From: an uncultured Clostridia bacterium | Lineage (GTDB): Bacteria; Bacillota; Clostridia; Christensenellales; UBA1242 | Reading direction: 5' to 3' | DNA: 64,000 nucleotides | Assembly (NCBI GenBank): GCA_944380265.1 | Contig: CALWGY010000004.1 | Span: 44,769 to 108,768 of the forward strand | Part shown: positions 20,448 through 20,634 of the stretch, in pieces | How the letters are laid out: each line of letters starts with the position of its first letter | Position numbering within the stretch: position 1 is the first letter of the stretch | Translations under genes and position numbers: made by a program | Notes under the pieces: generated by a model | Database searches by the model: none | What the model saw: only the letters and a program-made list of their open reading frames with translations | Told to the model about the DNA's origin: nothing

Positions 20448-20634
20448 ATGTGTTAAATGAAGCGGAGATTACATAAAGGGCACTGCGGTGTTAAAATTTA
20501 AACAAGTTTAAATTTTAAGTTTTGTTAGCACAAAACGGCACAACTTTGTTGTGCCACCGCAGTGCCAACCAACAGTTGTATGCTTTTGTCCTTTTTGGGC
20601 TGCTTGCCTACAACTTCCAATGATTTAAACACAT
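20448..20634 (+). ncRNA. Unclassified structured element, copy A (closing helix P0 plus four-way junction P1-P4)
   Basis: P0 is 20448-20458/20623-20634. P1 is 20479-20489/20556-20566 (GGCACTGCGGT/ACCGCAGTGCC). P2 is 20491-20502/20507-20518. P3 is 20519-20524/20531-20536. P4 is 20537-20544/20548-20555. A second copy lies at 41031-41197. Whether it acts as RNA or DNA is unknown, and the strand is uncertain. Confidence 0.5.

Follow-up and report, generated by a model that had tools for sequence, protein, structure and literature searches.

Elements of the IS607 family have no terminal inverted repeats (TIRs) and make no target-site duplications (TSDs); they insert at GG and carry GG at their termini (PMC6188088; PMC10690162), and they are common in low-GC gut Firmicutes (PMC6188088, PMC10690162, PMC11061315). 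The guide-RNA scaffolds of TnpB contain pseudoknots and conserved unpaired motifs, as with the E-loop and the kink-turn in RAGATH-18 (PMC11061315, PMC10690162). The defining features of the IS200/IS605 PATEs have been set out (PMC5027513, PMC10055086), the bacterial MITEs and structured repeats (Correia, RUP, ERIC, BOX and bcr1) have been reviewed (PMC2229807), and REP/BIME sequences are palindromes of 20-40 nt with more than 100 copies per genome, often clustered and in alternating orientation (PMC2817692). The locus described here compares with each of these in part. It is established that a discrete module of structured DNA has entered two spacers, unrelated to each other, in a single lineage, and that it can be cleanly lost. 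Its fold is real and the element is unclassified, and it is better described as standing nearer to small structured mobile repeats than to a new class of RNA.

The window, by which we mean the whole 64,000-nt stretch analysed, is chromosomal DNA (31% G+C) of a spore-forming uncultured gut Clostridia bacterium, a species that occurs in MAGs from ruminant and human gut. Its housekeeping and sporulation genes include sleB, ypeB, fba, gap, mnmA, metK, recX, acpS, mazEF, ileS, groEL, tig and clpPX. GC skew is zero or above in 16 of 16 intervals along it and positive in 15, indicating that the + strand is leading-strand sequence; both copies of the module have the same orientation. The first, copy A, lies between the terminator of virB4 and the promoter of the next gene, which encodes a 1611-aa ORFan. 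The features of this locus are as follows.

20323..20344, + strand: intrinsic terminator of virB4 (context; kept in relatives without the element)
20440..20478, + strand: possible 5' leader of copy A, starting with GCAAAAATGTGTT (boundary uncertain)
20479..20566, + strand: core of copy A, a four-way junction formed by P1-P4 (length 88 nt; 37 pairs, all Watson-Crick; linkers of 0-1 nt)
20479-20489/20556-20566: helix P1 of copy A, GGCACTGCGGT/ACCGCAGTGCC
20491-20502/20507-20518: helix P2 of copy A, 12 bp, all A/T, loop CAAG
20519-20524/20531-20536: helix P3 of copy A, 6 bp, with a seventh pair (T20525-A20530) possible
20537-20544/20548-20555: helix P4 of copy A, 8 bp, loop TTT
20727..20755, + strand: promoter of the 1611-aa ORFan, TG-extended (context; kept in relatives without the element)

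The coordinates and loops that an initial annotation of this DNA had given for P1-P4 match the sequence exactly, and 37 of 37 pairs are Watson-Crick. When a 201-nt stretch is folded, the minimum-free-energy structure is this junction for RNA of the + strand (z -5.5), for RNA of the - strand (z -5.0) and for DNA (z -5.6), and none of 200 dinucleotide shuffles matches its stability in any of the three. The placement of copy A was also borne out, as both context features, the virB4 terminator before it and the promoter 161 nt past P1 (TTGAAT at 20727, TATAAT ending at 20755), are confirmed. Just 3' of copy A, at 20574-20615, is a 10-bp hairpin, AGTTGTATGC/GCCTACAACT, which is kept within the species and is found neither in copy B nor in relatives.

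The same annotation enclosed the junction in an outer helix, P0 (20448-20458/20623-20634), so as to give an element of 20448..20634 on the + strand, and this helix we reject as a part of the element. Its letters are present as written, but the pairing is at chance level. Ungapped, it has 9 matches in 11, a level that shuffled flanks reach in 66%, and the AT-rich 321 nt around it contain 20 inverted repeats of this kind, P0 included. Strain variants at 20453 and 20626 disrupt it with no compensating change. There is no counterpart of P0 in copy B, nor in the variant L071, in which the 3' flank is exchanged for other sequence 4 nt past P1.

The second copy, copy B, had been reported about 20.6 kb from copy A, and it is indeed real and adopts the same junction fold. 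Its features are these.

40953..40981, + strand: terminator of mazF, upstream of copy B (context)
41020..41021, no strand assigned: GG at the left junction of copy B; the single GG in the empty site TGT-GG-CGGA
41022..41159, + strand: whole excisable unit of copy B (138 nt in all: a leader of 54 nt, then the four-way junction)
41076..41160, + strand: core of copy B, the four-way junction (78% identity to copy A over 78 nt)
41158..41159, no strand assigned: right-junction GG of copy B, with which the unit ends; it lies within the 3' strand of P1
41327..41355, + strand: promoter belonging to the 309-aa gene that follows copy B (context; also found in the empty-site strain and the sister species)

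In copy B, P1 is built from GCCCTGC/GCAGGGC, a tandem G.A/A.G and a T-A pair, and the hairpin stems measure 10-11 bp in P2, 6 bp in P3 and 7 bp in P4. The core is identical in at least 14 contigs, with variants in L051 and L071/L072. Copy B follows the mazF terminator, with about 220 nt between it and the 309-aa gene, which has its own promoter, and its neighbours are housekeeping genes (acpS, mazEF, ileS) 20 kb from the type IV secretion (T4SS) cluster that contains virB4. The 5' arm of P2 (41082-41102) has an alternative in copy B alone, a perfect 9-10-bp hairpin, CGATGTTAA/TTAACATCG, that rivals P2; this hairpin is impossible in copy A. A separate observation in the same neighbourhood is a 355-aa protein with no Pfam match (window 39071-40138), encoded between acpS and mazEF and kept in the sister species, at the spot occupied by alr in the Bacillus operon.

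The junction module is all that the two copies share, and even within it all three loops differ. The start of the copy A leader, GCAAAAATGTGTT, resembles that of copy B, GCAAATTGTGTT, and the + strand has the motif GCAAA-N1-3-TGTGTT at 20442 and 41025 and nowhere else, but in an unbiased local alignment of the two leaders the similarity is not significant, and the left 54-60 nt of the copies fold like shuffled sequence (z -0.18 and +0.97). The 3' flanks of the two copies align marginally (11 of 2000 shuffles are as good), which L071 contradicts. Long direct repeats that flank the copies at 20394/20650 and 41006/41163, considered as target duplications, are attributable to chance, and the pair at locus B is already there in the empty site. 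A link through the downstream genes was also rejected, as the 309-aa and 1611-aa proteins are unrelated.

Contigs of this species have copy A in 10 of 10 cases (with variants) and copy B in 15 or more. At locus A, relatives whose VirB4 is 94%, 88% and 84% identical keep both the terminator and the promoter and have no element, the spacer between them being about 230 or 480 nt of unrelated sequence, and the element is missing from at least five related lineages with a syntenic T4SS cluster. The spacer of the sister species at locus B is 163 nt long and likewise contains no element. The initial annotation had implied a conserved structured RNA gene, and that implication fails the comparison with relatives that had been named beforehand for it, since the homologous spacers lack the element altogether. 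The spacer between virB4 and the ORFan gene is a hot spot at which alternative sequences are inserted. Two contigs with a 99% identical VirB4 (L006, at 12700-12788, and L007) have a different sequence after the virB4 terminator, at which the contigs stop, and this insert resembles a minus-strand terminator and the end of a small gene.

The strain L058 provides an empty site for copy B. It has the same MazF, the same 309-aa gene and a spacer and flanks that are about 99% identical, and lacks exactly 41022-41159 in a single clean gap, with the neighbouring genes unchanged. The occupied site reads TGT-GG-TTGGC...GCAG-GG-CGGA (after the left GG, TTGGCAAA) and the empty site TGT-GG-CGGA, such that the right edge of the gap falls within the last bases of P1, at its 3' foot. 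The 138-nt unit, which starts with TTGGCAAATT and ends with CCAGAGCAGGG, has no terminal inverted repeats; P1 is an inverted repeat that bounds only the inner module, and there is no target-site duplication at copy B, the GG alone being shared between the empty and occupied sites. In this genome a random 2-nt microhomology is GG in about 1.2% of cases (expected 0.012). It is more likely that L058 arose by precise excision than that its site was never occupied, because the diverged lineages (the window type, L051 and L071) all have copy B. The empty allele is that of metagenome ERR15966299, and the ONAT22 and BRZ samples have the occupied one. L071 represents a second, independent rearrangement near the 3' edge of copy B, in which about 100 nt after the copy (L071 531-640 compared with window 41164-41240) are unrelated AT-rich sequence from 4 nt past the right edge. 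Metagenome contigs break at the edges of the element, as does contig L008, 5 nt before the left edge of copy B.

We favor, with slightly better than even confidence, the reading that these sequences are a small, non-autonomous, excisable structured insertion element that is mobilised in trans. The unit would be about 130-140 nt long. In it, a leader of about 40-54 nt with little conservation precedes a module of 85-88 nt, in which three abutting hairpins are closed by a helix whose 3' strand would form the very end of the unit. The enzyme that moves and excises it would be encoded elsewhere and act in trans, with the hairpin module as the recognised right end. The presence of GG on both sides and once in the empty site, together with the lack of TIRs and of a TSD, points to an exchange of the IS607 type. 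From the junctions of copy B we infer that this exchange would be conservative, over a 2-bp GG core, in the manner of IS607-family serine transposases, with the one empty site in L058 as its basis. An excised copy B circle would then carry the junction ...CCAGAGCAG-GG-TTGGCAAATTG..., and copy A, which reads TG (20564-20565) at the position matching the right GG of copy B, may be an immobilised copy. A hairpin-recognising single-strand mechanism of the HUH type would be the fallback. The 22% divergence of the copies exceeds what is expected of a duplication within the species, and thus suggests that there may be source copies elsewhere. A Pfam scan of the 38 main ORFs of the window found no resolvase, OrfB, HUH, relaxase, Rep, transposase or integrase. 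Counting against a mobile element are the restriction to two loci, the dissimilarity of the leaders and the lack of a matching 3' GG in copy A.

These same points, the small number of copies and the TG of copy A, would also fit inert palindromic DNA with no dedicated machinery, in which two fragments arrived in a one-time gain through illegitimate recombination or horizontal transfer, self-correction of the palindromes maintains the pairing, and L058 is an ordinary deletion. The deletion in L058 could be of this kind, stimulated by the hairpins and joined at a microhomology. However, a single discrete module with the same right-hand edge is present at two unrelated loci, two independent breakpoints lie within 4 nt of that edge, only about 1% of random microhomology deletions would be expected to have GG/GG junctions, and the divergence between the copies implies an older family. 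Features of the variation described below agree with it, and overall we regard this account as unlikely, but deserving of some weight.

Additional copies were sought with covariance models built from the two copies (R1) and from ten distinct variants (R2). The construction of such a model had been suggested in the initial annotation; the pairings proved to be shared, and no further junction-forming copy was recovered. R1 scores copy A at 115 bits and copy B at 93.7 bits. The model searches gave no third copy in the window with filters off, in the 10 kb upstream of it, in the virB4 regions of related species (23 genome loci) or among the pattern matches from public collections. R2 finds no significant copy folding as a junction in 507 kb of sequence from relatives. 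The family thus far consists of two loci in one species (2 copies in 74 kb). One weak intergenic match, in a distant relative with a 63% identical VirB4 (L031 15413-15503; 25 bits, E ~1e-3), shares GATGTTAAAATTT...AATTTTAAGTTGC but forms no junction, and may be either a chance match or a decayed relative. The exact pattern of P2 3' arm, P3 and P4 5' arm has no match in the viral and genome collections. A pattern based on P4 has none in the viral collection and ten in metagenomes, all of them plain hairpins rejected by the covariance model, and one based on P2 has a single match in a viral contig, due to chance. With blastn in a distant mode against phage and plasmid collections, the best E is 0.4, and a phage or plasmid origin is rejected, as nothing similar is present in those collections.

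The fold itself raises the alternative that the module is the gene, or a cis-acting element, of a structured non-coding RNA of a new class, with the four-way junction read from the + strand. The stability of the fold (z about -5) is in keeping with this, both copies are co-oriented with their flanking genes, and an RNA of this kind would have to be new. With Rfam 15 at the gathering score, the whole window gives tRNAs and a SAM riboswitch elsewhere and nothing at the element; at E<=10 the best match for both copies is 20 bits, against thresholds of 48-100. The families covered include riboswitches, 6S, SRP, tmRNA, RNase P, RAGATH-18, the IS605-orfB motifs and HEARO. The earlier statement that no known RNA class fits is thus upheld, and the matches to the riboswitch and tRNAs show that Rfam works on this window. 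The SAM riboswitch is at 34800-34927, ahead of metK, a cluster of five tRNAs is at 59006-59460, and a sixth tRNA is at 62677-62756 on the - strand. The junction shares the four-helix cloverleaf topology of tRNA, but its arms of 11, 12, 6-7 and 8 bp differ from those of tRNA, whose acceptor stem has 7 bp, and it lacks the linkers, the anticodon loop and the T-loop. ARAGORN reports no tRNA or tmRNA genes in 20300-20800 and 40950-41400, the Rfam tRNA model is likewise negative there, and both agree with the original view that this is not a tRNA.

Against an RNA gene, neither copy has a credible promoter upstream or a U-tract following P1, and the element is positioned after a strong terminator and before the next promoter. 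A TG-extended -10-like sequence, TGTTAAAAT, is conserved in the 5' arm of P2 in all copies, and a transcript starting from it would miss part of the junction. The absence of the element from all related species, and its clean deletion in L058 with its neighbours unaffected, also argue against an RNA function.

The pattern of variation bears on both of these alternatives. Among ten distinct sequences, 95.9% of cells are paired, with shuffled and slid controls far below this. Two-sided changes are seen at four pairs (9-90, 15-84, 29-34 and 46-63) and G.U changes at three more, and L071 regains Watson-Crick pairs at four positions that are mismatched in the copy B of the window. The four covarying pairs and the three G.U-type changes on the + strand favor an RNA, but three A.C events, which are wobbles only on the - strand, equal the three G.U events, and as a consequence neither strand can be called. 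Within the species, variable sites number 0.068 per nt in stems and 0.08-0.10 in flanks, such that the stems evolve about as fast as flanking DNA, as would be expected of inert DNA, and the loops are about 6-fold more variable than either stems or flanks. There are no conserved unpaired nucleotides in the junction. Two loops are found both ways round, each version being the exact reverse complement of the other (CAAG/CTTG for P2, TTT/AAA for P4). Such loop flips are the expected product of template switching or arm exchange in DNA palindromes, from which the pair-restoring changes can also come, and pair-preserving changes can stem from hairpin-templated correction without selection. The covariation signal is not specifically RNA-like. 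The behaviour of the loops, together with the presence and absence of the element among strains, points to a DNA-level element, and we consider an RNA of a new class to be rather doubtful. A perfect cloverleaf-like fold with covariation is insufficient for calling a new RNA gene.

Among known mobile DNAs, the likeness to IS607 elements is seen at copy B, where there are no TIRs and no TSD, GG stands at both junctions and loss is scarless, all in a gut Firmicute host. The differences are that the unit is 138 nt with neither tnpA nor tnpB, that the helically phased 9-bp subterminal direct repeats of IS607 are not demonstrable in it, and that copy A has TG where the right junction of copy B has GG. 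GTG cores are present in the copy B leader at 41032, 41041, 41050 and 41067; they are not kept in L051, and the copies are few. We do not file the element as a member of IS607, given the TG of copy A, the lack of demonstrable subterminal repeats, a right end that is a perfect four-way junction and not a scaffold of the RAGATH-18 type, and the lack of a candidate transposase in the window. The scaffold of a TnpB guide RNA (omega or reRNA) was similarly rejected, as there is no Rfam match and no conserved unpaired nucleotide in the junction.

In common with PATEs, the element is small, gene-less and hairpin-bearing, has no target duplication and is excised precisely, and its two copies are oriented alike relative to replication (n=2). 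Were P4 the right-end hairpin, its foot would be 9 nt from the right boundary, close to the 10 nt of IS608. The left end, however, has no hairpin, which rules out a PATE of the IS200/IS605 type, and the right end has four helices in place of one imperfect palindrome. No 4-5-nt target motif common to the two copies is visible 5' of them: the left flank of copy B ends with GTGG and the corresponding region of copy A, aligned through GCAAA and with an uncertain boundary, ends with CTAA.

With bacterial MITEs the element has in common that it is short, non-coding, intergenic, stably folding and variable between strains, but it has neither TIRs nor a duplication of the TA type or longer, its copy number is very low (2 in 74 kb), and it forms a four-helix junction and not one long hairpin. 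A classical, DDE-derived MITE is rejected, with neither TIRs nor a TSD found for the 138-nt unit. REP/BIME sequences are rejected as well, for the module is 88 nt, has four helices and is present in 2 unclustered copies in 74 kb. Mitochondrial GC-cluster and hairpin elements (PMC4478555, PMC2800124) resemble it as G+C-richer multi-hairpin modules in AT-rich spacers, with presence and absence and no enzyme of their own; they belong to another domain of life, and the comparison is by analogy only.

It is quite improbable, though worth stating, that this is the first miniature, gene-less, GG-targeting (IS607-like) element whose right end is a perfect four-helix junction. This junction could be either a novel site for structure-specific recombination or a new compact scaffold, similar to a guide RNA and read into the flank, for use in trans by a nuclease or transposase that these uncultured gut Clostridia encode elsewhere. 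Should the favored reading of a small excisable insertion element be right, the element would be an unusual addition to the bacterial non-autonomous elements, being 138 nt long and scarless, with GG junctions and a four-hairpin end resembling a Holliday junction; no described MITE, PATE or REP class would fit it, and it would provide a handle on the mobilising enzyme in a poorly known gut lineage. Its known range, two loci in one species, limits its importance for now.

The position of copy A next to virB4 suggests another role, in which the module is a single-strand DNA signal of the T4SS genes (an oriT-like nick site, a single-strand origin or a promoter) that folds in the transferred strand. 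The fold is equally strong with DNA parameters, the conserved -10-like TGTTAAAAT lies in the 5' arm of P2, and the breakpoints cluster just 3' of P1, which is comparable to the set place relative to hairpins at which relaxases nick in an oriT. However, copy B is among housekeeping genes 20 kb from the T4SS cluster, the lineages that have a syntenic cluster and lack the element number at least five, no relaxase or Rep gene is present in the window, and the cluster is a conserved chromosomal island and not a plasmid or ICE of recent origin. We consider this role very improbable. Membership of oriT or single-strand origin classes is rejected, with copy B by acpS, mazEF and ileS, no relaxase or Rep in the window, and element-free clusters in relatives. 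The conjugative context does not explain the element, because of the housekeeping surroundings of copy B and the lack of copy A in sister species that have the same T4SS cluster.

The T4SS cluster itself (window 3072-25619; also seen in L001, L003, L005 and L020-L042) is chromosomal and syntenic between ypeB/rho-like and fba. It contains VirD4 (on the - strand), a PF18895 pilin, an 813-aa membrane protein, VirB4, giant ORFans of 2603 and 1611 aa, and a 78-aa gene, and its synteny extends to relatives with VirB4 identity down to about 84%. VirB4 homologues of down to about 51% identity occur in other gut Clostridia or Christensenella-like MAGs. It looks like a conserved chromosomal system and not a recent ICE. 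At 1855-2946 of the window there is a 363-aa protein with only Rho N-terminal and RNA-binding domains and, by Pfam, no ATPase domain. In two contigs (L060 1510-2845 and L061 1511-2863) about 1 kb of extra DNA is present between the 813-aa gene and virB4 (window equivalent ~17099-17653); it contains a 120-aa ORF on the - strand and a truncated piece of a tyrosine recombinase (PF00589). The length of the 813-aa gene also differs between strains (762-809 aa), and the region upstream of virB4 may be invertible or shufflon-like.
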